Origin: a virus
Direction: 5' to 3' (one strand)
Virus genome (UHGV): UHGV-0157652
Length of the DNA stretch: 10,326 nucleotides
A program made the position numbers and the translations under genes. Every line of letters starts with the position of its first letter. Within the stretch, counting starts at the first letter, position 1. The notes under the pieces were generated by a model. That model was not told the origin of the DNA. It saw only the letters and a list, made by a program, of their open reading frames with translations, and ran no database searches. Below are positions 36-10,150 of the stretch, one piece after another.

Positions 36-662
36 TTAGAGTTCGTATTGAACTCCTTTGACTACACCAATGATAAGGCAATTACCATTGATAGGGATGT
101 TGGGATACCGAGGATTTAATGGCACTAAAAACTTTTGAGGGCCATCGATGACTAATTTTTTTACTGTAGCTTCGTTTGTTCCATCAAGTCGAGCGATGAC
201 TATTTTTCCATGACGAGGTTCTGCATCTGGATCTACAATCACTGTTGCGCCTTCTGGTATTGTTGGGAGGCCATTAGGGTTAGTCATGGAGTCACCTTTA
301 ACCTCTAATGCAAATGAGTTATCACCAATCTTTAATGATGTATCTACCCACTTGTCCACTTCACTAAACACTTCTGCTGCCCTGCACTCAGTAAACTGCC
401 CAGCCTGAACCCACGATATTACAGGAACTCTGCGCATGTTTGTGACGAGTTTGCCTTCAAACTCAGCACCATAAAGAATGTAATCTATTGACGTATTGAA
501 GAACTTCGCTAATTTCGAAAGTGCCTCCCCACCAGGGGTATTGATGTCTTTCTCCCAGTACCCCACAGCAACGTCGCTTACTCCACAAAATTTACCCAAT
601 TCTTTCTGGGACGTTCCGGTAACTCTTCTCAGAGCTTTTATACGCTGACCAACCGTTTCCAT
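36..662 (-). CDS. cI: CI-type prophage repressor (HTH_XRE N-terminus + LexA/S24-like autopeptidase C-terminus)
   Basis: 208-aa ORF on the minus strand. N-terminal HTH-like segment (TSQKELGKFCGVSDVAVGYWEKD); C-terminal S24-type core with candidate Ala-Gly cleavage site (WVQAGQF), Ser in GDSM and Lys in VKKLV. Divergent from the cro-like gene across an operator-rich spacer. Confidence 0.85.
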   Translation of the reverse strand: METVGQRIKALRRVTGTSQKELGKFCGVSDVAVGYWEKDINTPGGEALSKLAKFFNTSIDYILYGAEFEGKLVTNMRRVPVISWVQAGQFTECRAAEVFSEVDKWVDTSLKIGDNSFALEVKGDSMTNPNGLPTIPEGATVIVDPDAEPRHGKIVIARLDGTNEATVKKLVIDGPQKFLVPLNPRYPNIPINGNCLIIGVVKGVQYEL

Positions 663-1904: not shown

Positions 1905-2835
1905 ATTAACCGGCTATGTATGGGATGGTTGCGCTGCATCAGGCATGAAATTATCCAGCGTGGCAATTATGGCCCGCCTGGCTGATTTCAGTAATGACGA
2001 AGGTGTGTGCTGGCCATCAATTGAAACTATTGCCCGTCAGATTGGCGCGGGGATGAGTACCGTCAGGACGGCTATCGCACGGCTGGAAGCAGAAGGCTGG
2101 TTAACGCGTAAGGCGCGTCGCCAGGGTAACCGCAATGCGTCGAATGTTTATCAGCTTAACGTTGCGAAGCTTCAGGCAGCGGCATTTTCTCAACTGTCAG
2201 ATTCTGACCCGTCAAAATCTGACGCATCAAAATCTGACCCGTCAAAATTTGATGCGTCGAAATCTGGCAAAAAAGCGGGTTTTCACCCGTCAGAATCTGG
2301 CGGGGATCCGTCAGTAAAATCAAAACATGATCCGTCAGATAAAAAACCTTCTCGTCCGGACGCTTCGCAACCGGACACGCAGACGGATGAACAGGATTTT
2401 TTAACTCGCCATCCTGATGCGGTTGTATTCAGCCCTAAAAAGCGCCAGTGGGGAACGCAGGATGATTTGACCTGCGCACAGTGGCTCTGGAAAAAAATCA
2501 TCGCCCTGTACGAGCAAGCCGCCGAATGTGACGGCGAGGTGGTTCGTCCCAAAGAACCGAACTGGACAGCCTGGGCAAACGAAATTCGCCTGATGTGTGT
2601 GCAGGATGGTCGTACTCACAAACAAATCTGCGAGATGTACAGCCGCGTCAGCCGCGATCCGTTCTGGTGCCGTAACGTGCTCAGCCCGTCGAAGTTGCGG
2701 GAAAAATGGGATGAGCTTTCCCTGCGCTTATCACCGTCCGTCAGCACGTACACCGAAAAACGCGAAGACCCGTACTTCAAATCCAGTTACGACAACGTGG
2801 ACTACAGCCAGATCCCGGCAGGATTCAGGGGGTGA
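1894..2835 (+). CDS. Replication initiator, O-like (N-terminal HTH DNA-binding domain, repeat-encoding linker, C-terminal domain)
   Basis: 313 aa; SD GAGGTCGG upstream. N-terminal region (SVAIMARLADFSNDEGVCWPSIETIARQIGAGMSTVRTAIARLEAEGWL) is typical of phage replication-initiator HTH domains. Internal tandem DNA repeats begin about 100 codons in, the same relative position as ori-lambda inside lambda O. Confidence 0.8.
   Translation: MSTKLTGYVWDGCAASGMKLSSVAIMARLADFSNDEGVCWPSIETIARQIGAGMSTVRTAIARLEAEGWLTRKARRQGNRNASNVYQLNVAKLQAAAFSQLSDSDPSKSDASKSDPSKFDASKSGKKAGFHPSESGGDPSVKSKHDPSDKKPSRPDASQPDTQTDEQDFLTRHPDAVVFSPKKRQWGTQDDLTCAQWLWKKIIALYEQAAECDGEVVRPKEPNWTAWANEIRLMCVQDGRTHKQICEMYSRVSRDPFWCRNVLSPSKLREKWDELSLRLSPSVSTYTEKREDPYFKSSYDNVDYSQIPAGFRG
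2196..2347. repeat. Iteron-like direct repeats (candidate replication origin) inside the O-like gene
   Basis: Five tandem 15-bp units at 2196, 2211, 2226, 2241 and 2256 (consensus about GTCAAAATCTGACCC), plus degenerate copies CCGTCAGAATCTGG (2288-2301), CCGTCAGTAAAATC (2309-2322), CCGTCAGATAAAAAAC (2332-2347), followed by a short AT-rich stretch near 2394-2405. The repeats are in frame and encode an SKSDx pentapeptide repeat. Confidence 0.6.
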
Positions 2836-2837
2836 TC

Positions 2838-3326
2838 ATGAGTCTTTTGAATGAAGTTCAGAAATTCATTGAAGCCCATCCGGGATGTACTTCCGGAGAC
2901 ATTGCGGATGCTTTTGCAGGTTACTCACGGCAGCGCGTTCTGCAGTCAGCAAGCAAGTTACGTCAGAGTGGGCGTGTGGCTCACCGTTGTGAAGGAGATA
3001 CACGCAGACATTTCCCGCGCCTGACTGAGAGAGCGCAGGAACCGGAACCACAACCAGTTCGAGAAACCAGACCTGTGCGCAATTTCTATGTCGGCACTAA
3101 CGATCCACGGGTGATTTTGTGCCTGACCCGCCAGGCTGAAGAACTGGAGTCCAGGGGCTTATACCGTCGTGCTGCAACCGTGTGGATGGCGGCATTCCGT
3201 GAAAGCCACTCCCAGCCAGAACGAAACAATTTTCTGGCGCGTCGTGAGCGGTGCTTACGGAAAAGCAGCAAGCGCGCTGCATCGGGTGAAGAGTGGTATC
3301 TGTCAGGGAATTACGTGGGGGCTTAA
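2838..3326 (+). CDS. PerC/Pch-like transcriptional regulator candidate with an N-terminal winged-helix-like domain
   Basis: ATG 2838 with SD AGGGGG 6 nt upstream (alternative GTG 2832, 2 nt after the O stop codon). C-terminal segment AEELESRGLYRRAATVWMAAFRESHSQPERNNFLARRERCLRK matches my recollection of the PerC-family core; not verified by search. Stop TAA 3324-3326 overlaps the next ATG (TAATG). Confidence 0.5.
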   Translation: MSLLNEVQKFIEAHPGCTSGDIADAFAGYSRQRVLQSASKLRQSGRVAHRCEGDTRRHFPRLTERAQEPEPQPVRETRPVRNFYVGTNDPRVILCLTRQAEELESRGLYRRAATVWMAAFRESHSQPERNNFLARRERCLRKSSKRAASGEEWYLSGNYVGA

Positions 3327-3979
3327 TGAGTAATAAATATTGCCAGGCGCTGGTGGAACTGCGGAACAAACCAGCCCATGAACTGAAGGAAGTGGGCGAT
3401 CAGTGGCGCACGCCGGACAACATTTTCTGGGGAATTAACACCCTGTTTGGCCCGTTTGTTCTGGATCTGTTTACTGACGGTGATAACGCCAAATGTGCCG
3501 CGTATTACACGGCGGAAGATAACGCGCTGGCGCATGACTGGTCAGAACGTCTTGCGGAGCTTAAAGGTGCTGCCTTTGGTAATCCCCCATACAGCCGCGC
3601 CAGTCAGCATGAGGGGCAATACATCACCGGCATGCGTTACATCATGAAACATGCCGGTGCCATGCGTGATAAGGGCGGGCGCTATGTTTTCCTGATCAAA
3701 GCTGCCACCAGCGAAGTGTGGTGGCCGGAAGATGCGGACCATATTGCTTTTATTCGCGGGCGTATTGGTTTTGAACTGCCTGCCTGGTTTATCCCGAAGG
3801 ATGAGAAGCAGGTGCCGACAGGCGCTTTCTTCGCTGGTGCTATTGCTGTTTTCGACAAGACCTGGAAGGGACCGGCAATCAGCTACATCGGGCGCGATGA
3901 ACTTGAGGCATGTGGTGAAGCCTTTTTGGTGCAGGTTCGCCAGCAGGCGGAAAAACTGGTCAGGGAGATGGCGGCATGA
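3326..3979 (+). CDS. Phage Dam-type N6-adenine DNA methyltransferase (orphan)
   Basis: 217 aa from ATG 3326, translationally coupled to the upstream gene. Carries the catalytic NPPY motif (AFGNPPYS) and an N-terminal WRTP segment that I recall as typical of phage Dam-family proteins. No adjacent endonuclease gene. Confidence 0.8.
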   Translation: MSNKYCQALVELRNKPAHELKEVGDQWRTPDNIFWGINTLFGPFVLDLFTDGDNAKCAAYYTAEDNALAHDWSERLAELKGAAFGNPPYSRASQHEGQYITGMRYIMKHAGAMRDKGGRYVFLIKAATSEVWWPEDADHIAFIRGRIGFELPAWFIPKDEKQVPTGAFFAGAIAVFDKTWKGPAISYIGRDELEACGEAFLVQVRQQAEKLVREMAA

Positions 3980-4302
3980 CGACGTTAACTCAATGCCAGC
4001 AGCAGGTGCTGGATATGCTGATTTCTTACCAGAAAGAGCGTGGCTTTCCGCCAACCAATCAGGAGGTGGCAACCATGCTGGGATACCGTTCAGTGAATGC
4101 AGCGGTAGAGCATCTTCGTGCACTGGAGAAAAAAGGCGTCATCACGATAAAGCGTGGCGTGGCCCGGGGGATAACGCTTCATACCGCGGTGAAGGACGAC
4201 GACAGCGAGGCGGTCGGGATTATCCGCGCACTGCTTGCCGGTGAGGAAAACGCCAGGCTGCGTGCAGCCCACTGGTTACATGAGAGAGGCCTGAAAGTAT
4301 GA
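3976..4302 (+). CDS. LexA-type N-terminal DNA-binding domain protein (no peptidase domain)
   Basis: 108 aa; LTQCQQQVLDMLISYQKERGFPPTNQEVATMLGYRSVNAAVEHLRALEKKGVITIKRGVARGITL follows the LexA DNA-binding winged-helix pattern. ATGA overlap with the methyltransferase stop and with the next gene start. Confidence 0.8.
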   Translation: MTTLTQCQQQVLDMLISYQKERGFPPTNQEVATMLGYRSVNAAVEHLRALEKKGVITIKRGVARGITLHTAVKDDDSEAVGIIRALLAGEENARLRAAHWLHERGLKV

Positions 4303-4654
4303 AGCTGATCTTGCCTTTCCCGCCCAGCGTGAACACGTACTGGCGACACCCCAACAAAGGGGCGTTTGTAGGTAAAAGCCTGATAAGCGAGGCGGGGCGA
4401 AAATTCCAGAGCGCGGCGTGCGCAGCAATAGTTGAGCAGTTACGTCGTCTGCCGAAACCAACGTCGGCACCTGCTTCAGTGGAGATCGTGTTGTTTCCTC
4501 CGGATAACAGGATCCGCGAACAACAACAACGGGGGTGTGGGAAGACGACAGCCAGGTGAAAAGAATGCTGGTGGAGTGGGGGCCGGTTATCCCGGAAGGG
4601 AAGGTCGAGATCACTATCAGTAAGTACGAGAAAACGGCGGGTGCAGCCGCCTGA
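4299..4654 (+). pseudogene. rusA: rusA (Holliday-junction resolvase), disrupted by an internal deletion plus frameshift
   Basis: Frame 0 (4299-4559) gives a RusA-like N-terminus (LPFPPSVNTYWRH ... VEIVLFPPDNR) then runs into a stop. The RusA-like C-terminus (GVWEDDSQVKRMLVEWGPVIPEGKVEITISKYEKT) is in another frame (about 4535-4654). The segment expected between them, which in E. coli RusA as I recall it holds the catalytic RRDLDN aspartates, is absent. Confidence 0.55.
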
Positions 4655-5472: not shown

Positions 5473-6468
5473 GTGACCGTGAGAGCACTACTGACCCCTG
5501 AAATTGCCCCGCGTATGGGGATCGTATTGTTCAGACCCGGTTCAGAGCTGATGCCCCTGTTTAGGCAGGGGCGTGTCCTGCTGGAGCCTGAGCCGGAACG
5601 TTATTCATCTTTTGCCAGTGGTGCCGTTCCGGCGGCATCACAACCGCTGGCGGATGATCCTGCCGTTCGGGCCGTGTTCCGCAATGAGGCAGTGATCCGT
5701 CGTGCTGGTGGAGTGGAATGTCTTGAAAGCTGGTTACTTCGTGAAAAAGGCTGCCAATGGCCTCATTCCGACTGGCACAGCGAGAACATGACCACAATGC
5801 GACACGCGCCGGGCGCAATCCGTCTGTGCTGGCACTGCGATAACCAGCTGCGCGATCAGTTCACGGAACGGCTGGAATCAATGGCAACGGATAACTGTGC
5901 CCGCTGGGTGTTGTCTGTCGTGCGTCGGGATCTCGGTTTTGATGATAGTCACGTTGTGACAATGCCGGAACTGTGCTGGTGGCTGGTTCGTAATGACCTG
6001 GCGGATGCCTTACCGGAAAGTGCAGCCCGTAAGGCACTGAGATTACCGAAGCCTGTTGTGCCGTCTGTCACCCGGGAAAGTGACCTTGTGCCTTCGGTTC
6101 CTGCCACCAGCATCATCCAGGATAAAGCGAAAAAGGTGCTGGCGCTGAAAGTGGATCCGGAGTCGCCGGAGTCTTTTATGTTACGCCCAAAACGTCGCCG
6201 CTGGGTTAACGAAAAGTACACGCGCTGGGTTAAGACGCAGCCGTGTGCATGTTGTGGAAAGCCTGCTGATGATCCCCACCACCTGATAGGCCACGGTCAG
6301 GGCGGGATGGGTACAAAAGCGCATGACCTCTTTGTGTTGCCTTTGTGCAGAAAGCATCACGACGAGCTGCATGCGGATACCGTGGCATTTGAAGAGAAGT
6401 ATGGCTCCCAGCTGGAGCTGATATTTCGTTTTATCGATCGCGCGCTGGCAATTGGCGTGCTGGCGTAA
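5473..6468 (+). CDS. DUF968-family prophage protein (YdfU-like) with a C-terminal Cys/His cluster; start may be GTG 5473 or GTG 5479
   Basis: 331 aa. C-terminal QPCACCGKPADDPHHLIGHGQGGMGTKAHDLFVLPLCRKHHDELH is a zinc-binding, HNH-like motif arrangement. Sits immediately upstream of Q; as I recall, ydfU sits next to quuQ in the E. coli K-12 Qin prophage. Confidence 0.7.
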   Translation: MTVRALLTPEIAPRMGIVLFRPGSELMPLFRQGRVLLEPEPERYSSFASGAVPAASQPLADDPAVRAVFRNEAVIRRAGGVECLESWLLREKGCQWPHSDWHSENMTTMRHAPGAIRLCWHCDNQLRDQFTERLESMATDNCARWVLSVVRRDLGFDDSHVVTMPELCWWLVRNDLADALPESAARKALRLPKPVVPSVTRESDLVPSVPATSIIQDKAKKVLALKVDPESPESFMLRPKRRRWVNEKYTRWVKTQPCACCGKPADDPHHLIGHGQGGMGTKAHDLFVLPLCRKHHDELHADTVAFEEKYGSQLELIFRFIDRALAIGVLA

Positions 6469-6481
6469 GTGGAGAACGAGC

Positions 6482-7234
6482 ATGAACCTTGAAGCCTTAC
6501 CGAAATATTACTCCCCAAAATCTCCAAAATTGAGCGATGACGCACCGGCGACAGGCTCTGGTGGTTTAACAATTACGGATGTAATGGCTGCGCAGGGGAT
6601 GGTGCAGTCGAAAGCACCGCTTGGGTTTGCCTTATTCCTGGCAAAAGTTGGTGTTCAGGATCCTCAGTTTGCGATTGAAGGTCTGCTCAATTACGCGATG
6701 GCACTGGATAACCCGACATTGAACAAATTGAGTGAAGAAACCCGGCTACAGATCATTCCTTACCTTGTGAATTTTGCCTTTGCTGATTATTCCAGGTCTG
6801 CGGCAAGTAAGGCTCGCTGTGAGCATTGTGCTGGTACTGGATTTCATAATGTATTGCGCGAAGTGGTGAAACACTCCAGAAGCGGGGAATCTGTTATCAA
6901 GGAAGAGTGGGTAAAGGAACTGTGTCAGCATTGCCATGGTAAGGGAGAAGTCAGCACAGCGTGCAGAGGGTGTAAGGGTAAAGGGATTGTTCTGGATGAA
7001 AAAAGAACCCGGTTTCATGGCGTACCGGTATATAAGATTTGTGGGCGTTGTAATGGAAACCGGTTTAGTCGTTTACCGACCACGCTGGCACGACGTCATG
7101 TCCAGAAGCTGGTACCAGACCTGACCGATTATCAGTGGTATAAGGGGTATGCGGACGTCATTGATAAACTGGTAACAAAGTGCTGGCAGGAAGAAGCATA
7201 TGCTGAGATGCAATTAAGAAAAGTGACGAGATAA
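6482..7234 (+). CDS. Q: Late-gene antiterminator Q (lambda-Q family)
   Basis: ATG 6482 with SD GGAG 7 nt upstream (an in-frame ATG at 6452 overlaps the previous gene). N-terminus YYSPKSPKLSDDAPATGSGGLTITDVMAAQGM parallels lambda Q (FHSPKSPMMSDSP ... GTDVMAAMGM, from memory); contains Cys-rich zinc-finger segments (CEHCAGTG, CQHCHGKG, CRGCKGKG, CGRCNG). Confidence 0.85.
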   Translation: MNLEALPKYYSPKSPKLSDDAPATGSGGLTITDVMAAQGMVQSKAPLGFALFLAKVGVQDPQFAIEGLLNYAMALDNPTLNKLSEETRLQIIPYLVNFAFADYSRSAASKARCEHCAGTGFHNVLREVVKHSRSGESVIKEEWVKELCQHCHGKGEVSTACRGCKGKGIVLDEKRTRFHGVPVYKICGRCNGNRFSRLPTTLARRHVQKLVPDLTDYQWYKGYADVIDKLVTKCWQEEAYAEMQLRKVTR

Positions 7235-7265: not shown

Positions 7266-7306
7266 TTGCATTTTTCAAAAAATATGGATAAGATTTTCCC
7301 AACGAT
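7266..7306 (+). promoter_or_regulatory. Late promoter PR' with promoter-proximal pause element
   Basis: -35 TTGCAT (7266-7271), 17-bp spacer, -10 TAAGAT (7289-7294), then 6 nt and AACGATGGG (7301-7309). Lambda PR' has the same -10-like pause element AACGAT at +1 to +6 followed by ATGGG (from memory). Located directly after Q. Confidence 0.6.
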
Positions 7307-7341
7307 GGGCTTTGTATGTCTACCGTTGATAAGATTTAAGA

Positions 7342-7365
7342 ACCCGCCGCTGAGCGGGTTTTTTT
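7342..7365 (+). terminator. Rho-independent terminator (tR'-like) ending a short PR' leader transcript of about 65 nt
   Basis: Stem ACCCGC (7342-7347) / GCGGGT (7354-7359) with a 6-nt loop, followed by a run of seven T (7359-7365). Confidence 0.75.
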
Positions 7366-7484
7366 GTGCCTTGATGTTGGCAGTACGGTAAACACGCTGG
7401 TGGTCGTGAATACTGACTTTTTATCTTGCTGGCTTTTTAGACAAGAGTTATTGGTATGTCATGTTAACCAGAAGGAAAAAAGAC

Positions 7485-7679
7485 ATGCTAAAACAGCTAG
7501 ATATGACAGAAACGGCGAAAGTTGTTTTTAATGAATTAAGCGTCGAACCGGCAACAGTCGGGGAGATAGCACAAAACACATACCTTTCACGCGAACGCTG
7601 TCAGTTAATACTGACCCAGCTGGTTATGGCGGGGCTGGCAGATTACCAGTTCGGCTGTTACAGACGCCTTCAGCAATGA
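7485..7679 (+). CDS. Small HTH/winged-helix-like protein (64 aa), possible regulator, inserted in the late leader
   Basis: SD GAAGGA (7471-7476) 8 nt before ATG 7485 (in-frame upstream ATG at 7461 lacks an SD). Segment ATVGEIAQNTYLSRERCQLILTQLVMAGLA looks like a helix-turn-helix. Confidence 0.5.
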   Translation: MLKQLDMTETAKVVFNELSVEPATVGEIAQNTYLSRERCQLILTQLVMAGLADYQFGCYRRLQQ

Positions 7680-7828
7680 AGGGCTTTTAATTTGTGAAAA
7701 TGGGCGGCTGGTGGGTGTTGGTAGCACCTGCCAGCCATTCGCTCATGCTTACTGGTCACAAGCGAACCATGGCCCACTGCTTTAGCGCAAAAGCAGAGTG
7801 AGCCTACCAGAGTTACGCTTACTGATCC

Positions 7829-8881
7829 ATGAAAAATACTGTAAAAATAAACAGTGTTGATTTAATCAACGCTGATTGCCTGCATTTTATTCAGTCCCTG
7901 CCTGATGATTCCATTGACCTGATAGTTACCGATCCGCCGTACTTCAAAGTGAAGCCCAACGGTTGGGACAATCAGTGGAAAGGGGACGAAGATTACCTTA
8001 AGTGGCTGGACCACTGTCTGGCTCAGTTCTGGCGGGTGCTGAAACCTGCCGGAAGCCTTTACCTGTTCTGTGGACATCGCCTGGCATCTGATATCGAGAT
8101 CATGATGCGTGAACGTTTCAACGTGCTTAACCATATCATCTGGGCGAAGCCGTCCGGACGATGGAACGGGTGTAATAAAGAAAGCCTGCGGGCATATTTC
8201 CCCGCTACAGAGCGCGTTCTGTTTGCTGAACATTACCAGGGGCCATATCGCGGCAAAAGTGACGGCTATGCGGAAAAAGAAAGGGAACTCAAACAGCACA
8301 TAATGGCACCGCTGATATCGTATTTCAGGGATGCACGTGCCGAACTGGGTATAACGGCAAAACAGATTGCCGAAGCCACTGGTAAGAAAAACATGGTTTC
8401 CCACTGGTTTGGTGCCAGTCAGTGGCAGTTGCCGAATGAGGCTGACTACCGGAAGTTGCAGGCACTGTTTTCCCGTATAGCGGCAGAGAAGTTTCAGGAA
8501 CAACAACTGGAACAGACACACCACCAGCTGGTGGCATCTTATGATTCACTGAATCGCAAATATTCTGAATTGCTGGATGAGTTTAAATCTCTCCGGCGCT
8601 ATTTCTCCGTATCAGTCTCCGTGCCTTATACCGATGTCTGGACGCATAAACCCGTTCAGTTCTACCCGGGTAAACATCCGTGTGAGAAACCGGCGGATAT
8701 GCTCCGGCAAATAATCAATGCCAGTAGTCGACCAGGTGATCTGGTTGCTGATTTTTTTATGGGATCTGGTTCCACAATAAAAGCAGCAATGGAGCTGGGG
8801 CGTCGGGCGTTAGGTGTTGAGCTTGAGTCAGATCGGTTTAACCAGACGGTGAAAGAGGTAAGTGAACTGGTGGGGAAATAA
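7829..8881 (+). CDS. Orphan beta-class DNA methyltransferase (N6-adenine/N4-cytosine family; DPPY suggests N6-adenine)
   Basis: 350 aa. Motif IV DPPY near the N-terminus (DLIVTDPPYF) and motif I FxGxG near the C-terminus (VADFFMGSGST) give the IV-before-I order of beta-class amino-methyltransferases. Central region with an HTH-like segment could be the target-recognition domain. No endonuclease partner nearby. No recognisable SD before ATG 7829. Confidence 0.85.
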   Translation: MKNTVKINSVDLINADCLHFIQSLPDDSIDLIVTDPPYFKVKPNGWDNQWKGDEDYLKWLDHCLAQFWRVLKPAGSLYLFCGHRLASDIEIMMRERFNVLNHIIWAKPSGRWNGCNKESLRAYFPATERVLFAEHYQGPYRGKSDGYAEKERELKQHIMAPLISYFRDARAELGITAKQIAEATGKKNMVSHWFGASQWQLPNEADYRKLQALFSRIAAEKFQEQQLEQTHHQLVASYDSLNRKYSELLDEFKSLRRYFSVSVSVPYTDVWTHKPVQFYPGKHPCEKPADMLRQIINASSRPGDLVADFFMGSGSTIKAAMELGRRALGVELESDRFNQTVKEVSELVGK

Positions 8882-8888
8882 TTCTGGT

Positions 8889-8913
8889 GGCCACGTTGCG
8901 TGGCCTTTTTATT
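8889..8913 (+). terminator. Rho-independent terminator downstream of the methyltransferase
   Basis: Stem GGCCACG (8889-8895) / CGTGGCC (8899-8905) with loop TTG, followed by TTTTTATTT (8906-8914). Confidence 0.7.
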
Positions 8914-8958: not shown

Positions 8959-9294
8959 ATGCCTCATAACCCAAATACCTGGCCGGACTGGCTGGAGTTG
9001 TTCCAGAGCTGGTGGCGTGGAGATACGCCGCTGGGCGCAGTGATTATGTCGATTGTTATGGCTGGTTTGCGTATTGCCTATTTTGGTGGTGGTGGCGGCT
9101 GGAAACGAAAAACACTCGAAATTTTGCTCTGTGGCGCTCTGACGCTGACCTTTGCATCCGCGCTTGAGTATGTCGGATGGCCTAAATCGCTTTCTGTTGC
9201 CATTGGTGGTGGGGTGGGGCTGATCGGGGTCGATGCAATTCGTGGGGCTGCAATGAGAGTAATCGGTAACAAGTTTGGTGGCTCTAAGGAGTAA
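8959..9294 (+). CDS. S: Holin (lambda S-like, multi-TMD)
   Basis: 111 aa from ATG 8959 (SD GAGGTGAGAG 8941-8950); the ORF-track start at 8887 lies inside the upstream terminator. Hydrophobic segments GAVIMSIVMAGLRIAYF, ILLCGALTLTFASAL and VAIGGGVGLIGV with a charged C-terminus; overall layout parallels lambda S. Sits immediately upstream of the endolysin. Confidence 0.8.
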   Translation: MPHNPNTWPDWLELFQSWWRGDTPLGAVIMSIVMAGLRIAYFGGGGGWKRKTLEILLCGALTLTFASALEYVGWPKSLSVAIGGGVGLIGVDAIRGAAMRVIGNKFGGSKE

Positions 9295-9297
9295 TTT

Positions 9298-9774
9298 ATG
9301 CAGGTACTAAATTCCCAGCGTAAAGCTTTCCTCGATATGGTGGCATGGTCAGAAGGAACGGATAATGGACGGCAACCGACATGTAACCACGGTTATGACG
9401 TTATTGTCGGTGGTGAACTCTTCACTGATTACTCCGACCACCCTCGCAAACTTGTCACGCTAAACCCAAAACTTAAATCAACGGCTGCTGGACGCTACCA
9501 GATTCTTTCCCGATGGTGGGATGCTTACCGTAAACAGCTTGGTCTGAAAGACTTCTCCCCCAAAAGCCAGGACGCAGTGGCATTGCAGCAGATTAAAGAG
9601 CGTGGCGCTTTACCGATGATTGATCGCGGTGATATCCGTCAGGCTATCGATCGTTGCAGCAATATCTGGGCTTCACTGCCGGGCGCAGGTTACGGTCAGT
9701 ATGAACATAAAATCGGTGACCTGATTGCCCGATTTAAAGAGGCTGGTGGGGTGGTAAATGAAGTTGAGTTATAA
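9298..9774 (+). CDS. R: Endolysin, lambda R-type lytic transglycosylase
   Basis: 158 aa. Near-colinear with lambda R as recalled (QRKAFLDM-AWSEGTDNGRQ ... HGYDVIVGGELFTDYSDHPRKLVTLNPKLKST ... RYQ-LSRWWDAYRKQLGLKDFSPKSQDAVALQQIKERGALPMIDRGDIRQAIDRCSNIWASLPGAGYGQ), including the catalytic Glu in WSEGTD. SD AAGGAG upstream. Confidence 0.95.
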   Translation: MQVLNSQRKAFLDMVAWSEGTDNGRQPTCNHGYDVIVGGELFTDYSDHPRKLVTLNPKLKSTAAGRYQILSRWWDAYRKQLGLKDFSPKSQDAVALQQIKERGALPMIDRGDIRQAIDRCSNIWASLPGAGYGQYEHKIGDLIARFKEAGGVVNEVEL

Positions 9775-10150
9775 GCTGATTATCGCTGCTTTTTTCGTTA
9801 CTGCCATTGGTTCTTTCATCTGGTCAGCCAACTACTACTACAGCAAATATCAGTACGAAAAGAAACGTGCTGATGAGGCTGTACAAAATGCTGAATCAGC
9901 AACTGCCATTACCAATAACGTCCTGCAATCAATGCAAATCGTCAATACAGTTTTGGAGGCTAACCAGCATGCAAAACAGCAGATCGCACTGGAGTCACAG
10001 AGAACCCAGGAAGATATCAAAGTGGCTGTTGCGGATGATGATTGCGCTTCACGCCCTGTGCCTGATGTCGCTGCTGACCGGTTGCGGAAGTACGCGGACA
10101 GTATACGTGCAGGTTCCAACGATACCGTTACCGGCGAACCTGCTCGCTGA
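9758..10150 (+). CDS. Rz: Rz-like i-spanin (inner-membrane spanin subunit)
   Basis: 130 aa. N-terminal TMD (LIIAAFFVTAIGSFIW) followed by a charged, Gln/Ala-rich coiled-coil-like periplasmic domain. Starts 17 nt inside the 3' end of R; located where Rz lies in lambdoid lysis cassettes. Confidence 0.8.
   Translation: MKLSYKLIIAAFFVTAIGSFIWSANYYYSKYQYEKKRADEAVQNAESATAITNNVLQSMQIVNTVLEANQHAKQQIALESQRTQEDIKVAVADDDCASRPVPDVAADRLRKYADSIRAGSNDTVTGEPAR

Follow-up and report, generated by a model that had tools for sequence, protein, structure and literature searches.

In a 10,326-nucleotide window of the UHGV virus genome UHGV-0157652 we identified a conserved structured RNA (7694–7828, + strand) that forms the leader of a DNA methyltransferase gene of the M.EcoGII family. 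Alignments, covariation and covariance-model matches support it well as a real RNA-level feature that is broad in phages of Gammaproteobacteria. The gene pair around it, a small winged-helix gene and the methyltransferase gene, is ordinary: the cassette is known and its enzyme family is characterised, and the leader RNA is what adds interest. The leader suggests a cis-acting translational element that would restrict ribosome access to a toxic gene. With moderate confidence, we read the whole as a late-operon methyltransferase cassette of lambdoid and N15-like temperate phages, in which the leader gates translation.

Structure and conservation of the leader RNA

The spacer between the small open reading frame (ORF) and the methyltransferase gene measures 149 nt in the window, and across homologues always 138–153 nt. 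Its conservation exceeds that of both flanking coding regions, and it contains an invariant core (AAATGGGCGGCTGG). On the + strand it forms a three-way junction, in which helix P1 (7701–7705 with 7772–7776) encloses P2 (7706–7717 with 7725–7736) and P3 (7738–7746 with 7758–7766), followed by P4 (7777–7783 with 7790–7796) and P5 (7797–7803 with 7817–7823) toward the start codon. P5 ends about 6 nt before the AUG. The fold z-score of the window leader was −5.5, and in 72 homologues positions −12 to −1 were predicted to be mostly paired. The initial annotation had suggested 7680–7828 as a possible DNA target of the small protein encoded upstream; the evidence favours a conserved structured RNA instead. 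A 33-aa leader peptide starting at the conserved AUG 7701 was rejected, since codon 8 is a stop codon in many homologues and indels disrupt the frame.

P1 to P4 were defined by hand. In a plain MAFFT alignment of 36 sequences, 18 of 33 pairs had changed on both sides, a value reached by none of 500 shuffles. In an alignment fitted to the covariance model this was the case for 27 of the 33 pairs, with 142 cells changed on both sides (versus 39.8 ± 4.8 in shuffles). Sliding one strand by 1–3 columns as a control yielded at most 46 such cells. P2 carries compensatory changes between lineages, reading GGCTGG...CCAGCC in E. coli, GACTGT...ACAGTC in Providencia, GGCAGAAGAGTG...CACTGCTTCTGCC in Yersinia and GATCGGAGAGCG...CACTCTTCCGATC in Lonsdalea. 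The sequences of P5 differ by lineage as well; 81% of its cells are paired, and three of its pairs show two-sided changes. Eighty further loci from different species displayed the same element with obvious compensatory changes. A scan of IMG/VR with the methyltransferase alignment returned near-identical loci only, which were therefore left out of the covariation analysis.

The loop of P3, G(G/A)UCA, is complementary to a conserved UGAUC at −7 to −3. In the window this gives a candidate pseudoknot between GGUC (7754–7757) and GAUC (7824–7827, both + strand), just 5' of the AUG. The pairing is compatible in 92% of cells, with one position alternating between G-U and A-U, and in Providencia-type copies it grows to 8 bp and takes in the start codon's AU. 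Longer constructs folded as single sequences select it too. The same stretch holds an almost invariant GATC, a Dam site, 1–3 nt before the methyltransferase ATG (7823–7828 in the window, homologous positions in loci L096–L172), and in about a third of copies the P3 loop reads GATCAC. Downstream of the start, an inverted repeat (ACTGT-N8-ACAGT; 7836–7853, + strand) spans methyltransferase codons 3–9 and is kept in most homologues, while the intervening bases vary. It may be a regulatory structure reaching the ribosome footprint, or a mere trace of the conserved peptide TV(K/N)(I/L)(N/S)S.

A covariance model built from the 36-sequence alignment gave exactly one match in 75 of 96 sources, all on the + strand. 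In a second covariance-model search, seven of seven matches were again on the + strand, three of them repeating the first search. All matches but one end at the methyltransferase start codon. Taken together, the element was found in 79 of 101 methyltransferase loci, always directly 5' of the first start codon of the cassette, and it spans phages from E. coli to Vibrio and Aeromonas. The model also finds it in phiKO2, Serratia OS31, PhiR46_1, Vibrio VHML and Aeromonas phiARM81ld. Flotzy and LLS have the element but no small ORF, and N15 and PY54 carry a diverged form directly after the late terminator tR'.

The one exceptional match, in phiARM81ld, ends at the start of a com-like gene. There (L010, 1532–1877) the late terminator is followed by the RNA element, an annotated Com-like gene that overlaps the methyltransferase start, and the methyltransferase gene; the distance from the element to the com-like gene equals that from the element to the methyltransferase gene elsewhere. 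The model did not find the element in the P2-like phiO18P, where the methyltransferase gene sits between holin and lysin, and 17 Photorhabdus and Xenorhabdus loci were left unmatched. In the latter (L149–L175, about 1390–1500) a winged-helix gene and a P2-like hairpin are followed by CATTCGCC, while the 3' strand of P1, P3 and P4 are missing. The copies inspected by eye look like a shortened leader variant that keeps P2.

Searches of Rfam 15 with the leader (7694–7828) revealed no family at its gathering threshold, permissive searches with short windows and a diverged copy included. The best scores were at chance level (Plasmid_R1162, 16 bits versus 55; D12-methyl, 13 bits versus 57). RefSeq records annotate no feature at the leader, and a full-text literature search with the core sequence in either orientation returned no paper, lists of unpublished candidates not being searchable. 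We therefore treat the element as apparently undescribed. The available passages of the M.EcoGII literature mention neither an upstream structured leader nor the winged-helix gene. Two kinds of phage RNA were considered and set aside: the anti-sRNAs AgvB and AsxR sit 3' of moron cargo, and accounts of the Pas sRNAs place them beside holin, sialate-esterase or LpxR genes and mention no methyltransferase. Neither kind agrees with the element in position.

The methyltransferase and the winged-helix protein

The methyltransferase gene (7829–8881, + strand) encodes a 350-aa beta-class N6-adenine DNA methyltransferase of the M.EcoGII family (PF01555, E = 2.4e-42, residues 29–341). Its motif order is that of the beta class, with a central target-recognition region, and the catalytic motifs are intact. 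An inactivating lesion in these motifs had been named beforehand as a possible objection; DPPY (residues 35–38) and FFMGSG (309–314) are both preserved, and neither varies in an alignment of 7 members with identities as low as 53%. The enzyme is 98% identical to SfV orf48, 88% to the reconstructed ancestor Anc291 and 80% to M.EcoGII over its full length (280 of 349 residues, 2 gap positions). The last two references were machine-read from the PDF supplement of PMC11551740, so that these identity figures may be off by about 1%, a small point against our reading. A sequence search of the PDB found no structure of M.EcoGII, only distant beta-class enzymes.

Published data on relatives bear on the specificity of the enzyme. 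Anc291 methylated DNA and RNA, and the RNA assay revealed no sequence motif. The prophage-borne M.EcoGII methylates adenine in any context, is unexpressed in the lysogen and is deleterious when expressed constitutively (PMC5778455). A 2025 review treats it together with Mu Mom as toxic and silent during lysogeny (PMC12707154). Among more distant relatives, PhiOS31_p25 shares 65% identity with the window enzyme and is of 'extremely relaxed' specificity, and ARM81ld_p56, at 53%, shows no specificity (PMC7556043); the authors of that study also predicted non-specificity for the homologues of phiP27 and Morganella. Homologues of M.EcoGI and M.EcoGII left no detectable motif in lysogen methylomes (PMC6602927). 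Since tested relatives with relaxed or absent specificity bracket the window enzyme at 80%, 65% and 53% identity, we infer by homology that it is very likely non-specific for sequence context.

The initial annotation had called the specificity undecidable from sequence; homology to the M.EcoGII family answers the question, within the limits of homology. It had also considered that the enzyme might mark the lysogen epigenetically. A sequence-specific methyltransferase, or an epigenetic regulator expressed in the lysogen, would have a precedent in the prophage enzyme M.EcoGIII, which targets CTGCAG in the O104:H4 Stx phage. However, the three bracketing relatives, the motif-free lysogen methylomes and the harm done by constitutive M.EcoGII expression make this scarcely probable. 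The late anti-restriction role suggested at the outset matches published accounts of the family (PMC5778455, PMC12707154). Toxicity and silence in the lysogen are carried over from the measurements on relatives and are presumed for the window enzyme.

The small ORF was listed as 7461–7679 (72 aa). Three observations support a start at ATG 7485 and thus a protein of 64 aa (7485–7679, + strand), the length that had been proposed: an AAGGA Shine-Dalgarno sequence lies upstream, the PHROG match begins at residue 9, and SfV orf47 has the same start. The protein belongs to phrog_331 (E = 1.9e-34), a family of unknown function. Its AlphaFold model (pLDDT 90) displays the H-H-H-beta-beta topology of a canonical winged helix. 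Fold-search neighbours are generic winged helices, which comprise the DNA binders IclR and MarR and the RNA-binding winged helix of SelB, so that the fold leaves the ligand undecided. A profile search detected 518 homologues (E ≤ 0.001), most of which carry the NCBI label 'TrmB family' or 'DprA-like winged helix'. Pfam gave only sub-threshold matches to TrmB and DprA_WH.

The winged-helix gene is present in 69 of the 101 methyltransferase loci and absent in 32; of the 79 loci with both RNA element and methyltransferase, 27 lack it. That is, it is an accessory and optional member of the cassette, not an obligatory partner. Its two alleles, about 49% identical to each other, are freely recombined with different methyltransferase alleles: at 98% methyltransferase identity the small ORFs are 49% identical, and at 80% they are 92% identical. 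Probable distant homologues are gp51 of N15 (30% identity, E = 7e-4) and gp51 of phiKO2 (hhalign probability 76%), whose genes lie immediately before the annotated late promoter. The idea of a controller-like regulator found no support, since the protein is a winged helix and not of the XRE/HTH_3 type, no endonuclease accompanies it, and the gene is absent from the 27 loci. An activator of the Mu Com type was likewise rejected: the protein has no zinc-finger pattern (2 Cys), its fold is a winged helix, and its gene ends 149 nt upstream of the methyltransferase gene.

Locus layout and distribution of the cassette

Pfam and PHROG scans of the ORFs identify the window as the immunity-to-lysis segment of a lambdoid prophage. 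Its stretch 7200–9000 matches several E. coli chromosomes at 99.9% identity and Shigella phage SfV at 97%. The initial annotation had placed the cassette in the late leader between tR' and the holin gene; this layout was confirmed, and all features it had marked are present at or near their given positions according to Pfam, PHROG, a terminator scan and the SfV annotation. The gene for antitermination protein Q (PF03589 and a DnaJ-type zinc finger, Pfam E = 1.1e-54; phrog_127) lies at 6482–7234 (+ strand). Its start at ATG 6482 is an estimate from the PHROG alignment and the SfV annotation of Q, the ORF as listed running from TTG 6452 to 7234. A putative late promoter PR' (TTGCAT-17 nt-TAAGAT; 7266–7294, + strand), read from the sequence, resembles in position the annotated late promoter-terminator pair of N15 and phiKO2. 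It is followed by the intrinsic terminator tR' (AACCCGC-CGCTGA-GCGGGTT, then T7; 7341–7366, + strand), with a 7-bp GC-rich stem and a 6-nt loop, and SfV annotates a rho-independent terminator at the homologous site.

A promoter scan found no own promoter for the cassette on the + strand in 7367–7828. At the boundary of methyltransferase and holin genes, a strong intrinsic terminator was detected by the terminator scan (GGCCACG-TTG-CGTGGCC plus TTTTTATTT; 8889–8913, + strand), and SfV, N15 and phiKO2 have a terminator annotated at the equivalent place. The lysis genes occupy 8959–10150 (+ strand) and encode the holin (8959–9294; PF05106, phrog_126), the endolysin (9298–9774) and Rz (9758–10150), named S, R and Rz at these positions in SfV. 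Thus, the cassette lies between Q/PR'/tR' and the lysis genes on the same strand. N15 and phiKO2 share this layout with late promoter and terminator annotated, and the slot downstream of PR' is a recognised moron site (PMC4104026).

No restriction-endonuclease family was found among the window ORFs scanned, and in every locus examined Q and the lysis genes flank the cassette. The description as an orphan beta-class adenine methyltransferase with its own downstream terminator is thus borne out. Just upstream of Q, a DUF968 protein (5473–6468, + strand) has a weak HNH-nuclease match (PF16784, E = 4.4e-6) and is labelled HNH endonuclease in some phage records. It was not taken as a restriction partner because it occupies the same position in several related loci. 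A scan of the window found no tRNAs.

Judged by its conservation from E. coli to Morganella and Providencia, the two-gene pair is not a chance pattern of ORFs. Homologues of the methyltransferase occur in 2,359 of 5,426 complete E. coli genomes (43%), with up to 8 copies per genome, and the cassette was found in SfV, mEp460, cdtI, phiP27 and N15-like phages. The order Q-terminator-small ORF-methyltransferase-terminator-holin is annotated in SfV and recurs in cdtI, Hafnia yong2, Morganella IME1369_02, Citrobacter phiNP, Providencia PSTRCR_117lys and others. In SfV, cdtI, N15, phiKO2, PY54 and the Hafnia, Morganella, Citrobacter, Aeromonas and Serratia phages the methyltransferase gene sits just upstream of the lysis genes and mostly downstream of Q. 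The cassette is widespread, ancient and known, and the unusual insertion that it was first taken for is not what we see.

In Stx2a_1447 and 1720a-02, the leader that carries stx2 also contains the cassette, placed after Q and ahead of stx2 and, where present, the tRNAs; PMC8456039 notes this arrangement descriptively. The parallel drawn earlier with the toxin slot of Stx phages is therefore right as to the leader, but not as to a replacement: the cassette accompanies stx2 in those phages and is not a substitute for it. In Serratia phage OS31 (L176, 536–1566), two larger ORFs between Q and the RNA element, p23 and p24, take the place of the winged-helix gene and were proposed as a toxin-antitoxin pair by the phage's authors. 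The same slot holds a 192-aa ORF in LLS and a 50-aa ORF in Flotzy. The interval from tR' to the leader is itself a site of variable cargo.

The remainder of the window starts with a cI-type repressor gene (36–662, minus strand), followed by genes for Cro, a CII-like protein, a replication-initiator-like protein, a PerC-like protein and a Dam-family methyltransferase. Next come a protein with a LexA DNA-binding domain and nothing else, a KilA-N protein and the DUF968/HNH protein, before Q, the cassette region, holin, endolysin and Rz. Within the replication-initiator-like gene (1894–2835), a repetitive protein stretch (DPSKSDASKSDPSKFDASKS) is encoded at about 2130–2320 (+ strand), and repetition shows in the other frames as well. 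The pattern suggests direct repeats resembling iterons, which would place an origin of replication within the initiator gene, as in lambda O. The Dam-family gene (3293–3979, + strand; probable start ATG 3326; PF05869, E = 3.7e-45, NPPY), in the early/nin region, is a second orphan adenine methyltransferase gene, so that the prophage carries one early Dam-like and one late M.EcoGII-like enzyme.

The LexA-domain protein (3976–4302, + strand; 108 aa; PF01726, E = 2.9e-19) comes without the S24 protease domain and could be an uncleavable LexA mimic or decoy. At the corresponding position upstream of rusA, phage 1720a-02 is annotated with an 'SOS-response repressor and protease LexA'. An 86-aa ORF within 4299–4623 (+ strand), starting MKLILPFPPSVNTYW, resembles the N-terminus of RusA resolvase by eye, with no Pfam match at E ≤ 0.001. 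It breaks off and reading resumes in another frame (ORF 4432–4623), while the intact rusA of 1720a-02 encodes about 130 aa. Region 4299–4623 is probably a frameshifted rusA.

A proposed translational gate, its rivals and known systems

From these data we propose the following course of events. In the lysogen, transcripts from PR' would stop at tR', and the cassette would stay silent. After induction, Q-modified RNA polymerase would presumably pass tR' and transcribe the optional winged-helix gene, the leader of about 135 nt and the methyltransferase gene, and then read through the terminator at 8889–8913 into the lysis genes. Adenine methylation in nearly any context would leave the replicating phage DNA heavily N6-methylated before packaging, which could make it resistant to many restriction systems in the next host. 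Because the enzyme would be toxic, an extra translational gate may operate, made up of a start without a recognisable Shine-Dalgarno sequence (as read from the sequence), the five-helix leader and the pairing of the P3 loop (G-R-UCA) with the UGAUC 5' of the AUG. The fold would limit or time ribosome loading, and a protein would relieve or tune it. Candidates for this role are the winged-helix protein where present, the Com-like protein in phiARM81ld and the methyltransferase itself; since 27 loci lack it, the winged-helix protein is not a general opener. In its most specific form, the proposal is that of an undescribed RNA family restricted to M.EcoGII-family methyltransferases, a gate with a loop-to-start-site pseudoknot that a protein or small ligand opens. 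We put this forward tentatively, as plausible but short of probable.

Several observations weigh against this account. The PR' candidate is a weak match, agreeing with 7 of 12 consensus positions and falling below the threshold of the promoter scan. The strongest covariation count rests on an alignment fitted to the covariance model. In a short-context minimum-free-energy fold of the window copy the AUG region is open. The pseudoknot is absent in Hafnia phage yong2, N15, PY54 and locus L123, and elsewhere its partners are almost invariant, so that there is little true covariation. Finally, the helices look alike on both strands; only wobble pairs can therefore discriminate between them, and the wobble evidence disagrees. 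P2, P5 and the pseudoknot contain G-U pairs that fit the + strand only. In P3 and P4, A-C cells (G-U on the minus strand) outnumber G-U cells. The minus strand also folds more stably in 62 of 71 copies, with an RNAalifold consensus of −79.1 kcal/mol (versus −70.6 kcal/mol for the + strand).

The minus-strand features among these data would suit an antisense RNA, that is, a minus-strand transcript across the methyltransferase start that silences the toxic gene in lysogens in the manner of a type I antitoxin or P22 sar, or a sense/antisense pair. The helices would then be conserved because antisense RNA and target both need stem-loops. Tandem C-A/A-C cells of P3 in about 50 copies, which are G-U on the minus strand, agree with this, and so does the GCCCA of the minus-strand P1 3' strand with the short U-run that follows it in the sequence. 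However, this U-run is just 2–5 nt long and is missing in the Aeromonas copy. A promoter-like TCAACA-16 nt-TATTTT overlaps codons 2–3 in some copies, but its −10 is lost where codon 3 is AAC instead of AAT, a freely varying synonymous codon. No minus-strand sigma-70 promoter was found at a conserved position in 27 diverse loci, nor in the scan of the window, and many G-U pairs of P2, P5 and the pseudoknot are mismatches on that strand. In phiARM81ld, moreover, the element precedes a different gene, the com-like one, with no promoter-like sequence evident downstream. An antisense RNA therefore appears unlikely to us, and an mRNA leader is favoured because it needs no extra promoter or terminator and lies in fixed register with the start codon.

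An mRNA leader could also sense a metabolite such as SAM, SAH or the nucleotide pool, and thereby couple translation of the methyltransferase to cofactor supply. A three-way junction followed by helices at the start codon, highly conserved unpaired nucleotides, the location in the 5' untranslated region of a SAM-dependent enzyme and the 27 loci that have the element without the winged-helix gene would all suit a riboswitch. Yet no known riboswitch family matches, the ligand is purely conjectural, and an element confined to a single phage gene family looks more like a leader regulated by a protein or by its own product, which makes a riboswitch rather doubtful. Conservation at the DNA level, with the helices as inverted repeats of a winged-helix operator or a recombination boundary, would account for a mosaic breakpoint between small-ORF and methyltransferase alleles that falls in the spacer. 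In favour of this, too, P2 forms an inverted repeat and lies next to the gene of a winged-helix protein. But four or five helices keep their pairing through compensatory changes, many of them G-U, for which DNA symmetry offers no explanation, the same 27 loci do without the winged-helix gene, and the distance to the start codon is fixed despite unrelated flanks in N15, VHML and phiARM81ld. We consider this very unlikely.

If the translational gate exists, it would explain how a toxic genome-wide methylase stays harmless in the 43% of complete E. coli genomes that have it and is released only late in lytic growth. M.EcoGII is a common reagent in chromatin and RNA footprinting. Accounts of how it is regulated in nature go no further than silence in lysogens and toxicity when expressed, and the leader provides a testable handle on this regulation. 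The leader would also add an RNA family that current annotation misses. In Stx2 phages with the cassette, it is part of a shared late transcript just upstream of stx2, where RNA elements could affect toxin expression. In addition, the analysis corrects the database labels 'site-specific DNA-methyltransferase' and 'TrmB family transcriptional regulator'.

Among known systems, Rfam D12-methyl (RF02950) is a structured RNA of unknown function beside phage-type adenine DNA methyltransferase genes. The window leader is not a member, as its score falls short of the gathering score; D12-methyl accompanies D12-class enzymes, whereas the window enzyme belongs to PF01555. Mu com/mom offers a functional parallel. 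In Mu, a toxic, late, broad-spectrum anti-restriction modification gene stands at the end of the late unit, and translation of mom is controlled by mRNA structure near the start and by a small protein encoded upstream. A late toxic modification gene is common to both, while leader control is only proposed for the window. The phiARM81ld locus, with its Com-like gene between RNA element and methyltransferase, recalls Mu most directly. The small protein of the window is a winged helix and Mu Com a zinc finger; the window RNA has five helices in about 135 nt and that of Mu a single hairpin; and the window enzyme is a methyltransferase, not Mom. With no homology detected to Mu com/mom, the resemblance is functional only. 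Non-specific adenine methyltransferases do replace mom in Mu-like prophages (PMC3299994).

Closer still are M.EcoGII and M.EcoGI of E. coli O104:H4 C227-11 (Murray et al. 2018, PMC5778455), beta-class enzymes of 349–350 aa like the one described here. M.EcoGII and the window enzyme are alike in an N-terminal DPPY, a C-terminal FxGxG, a prophage location and the lack of an endonuclease partner. They differ by 20% divergence that includes the target-recognition region, and the activity of the window enzyme is predicted from its relatives. The M.EcoGII-like allele of Stx2a_1447 (93% identical) has the same context of winged-helix gene, RNA leader and methyltransferase, and in Stx2 phages the cassette precedes the tRNAs and stx2AB. 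From orf47/orf48 of SfV, which are also found in mEp460, cdtI, phiP27 and the Stx2a and Stx2c phages, the cassette of the window differs in nothing material. SfV-type records label these genes unknown or site-specific methylase, which the family data contradict. The window holds another copy of the SfV cassette.

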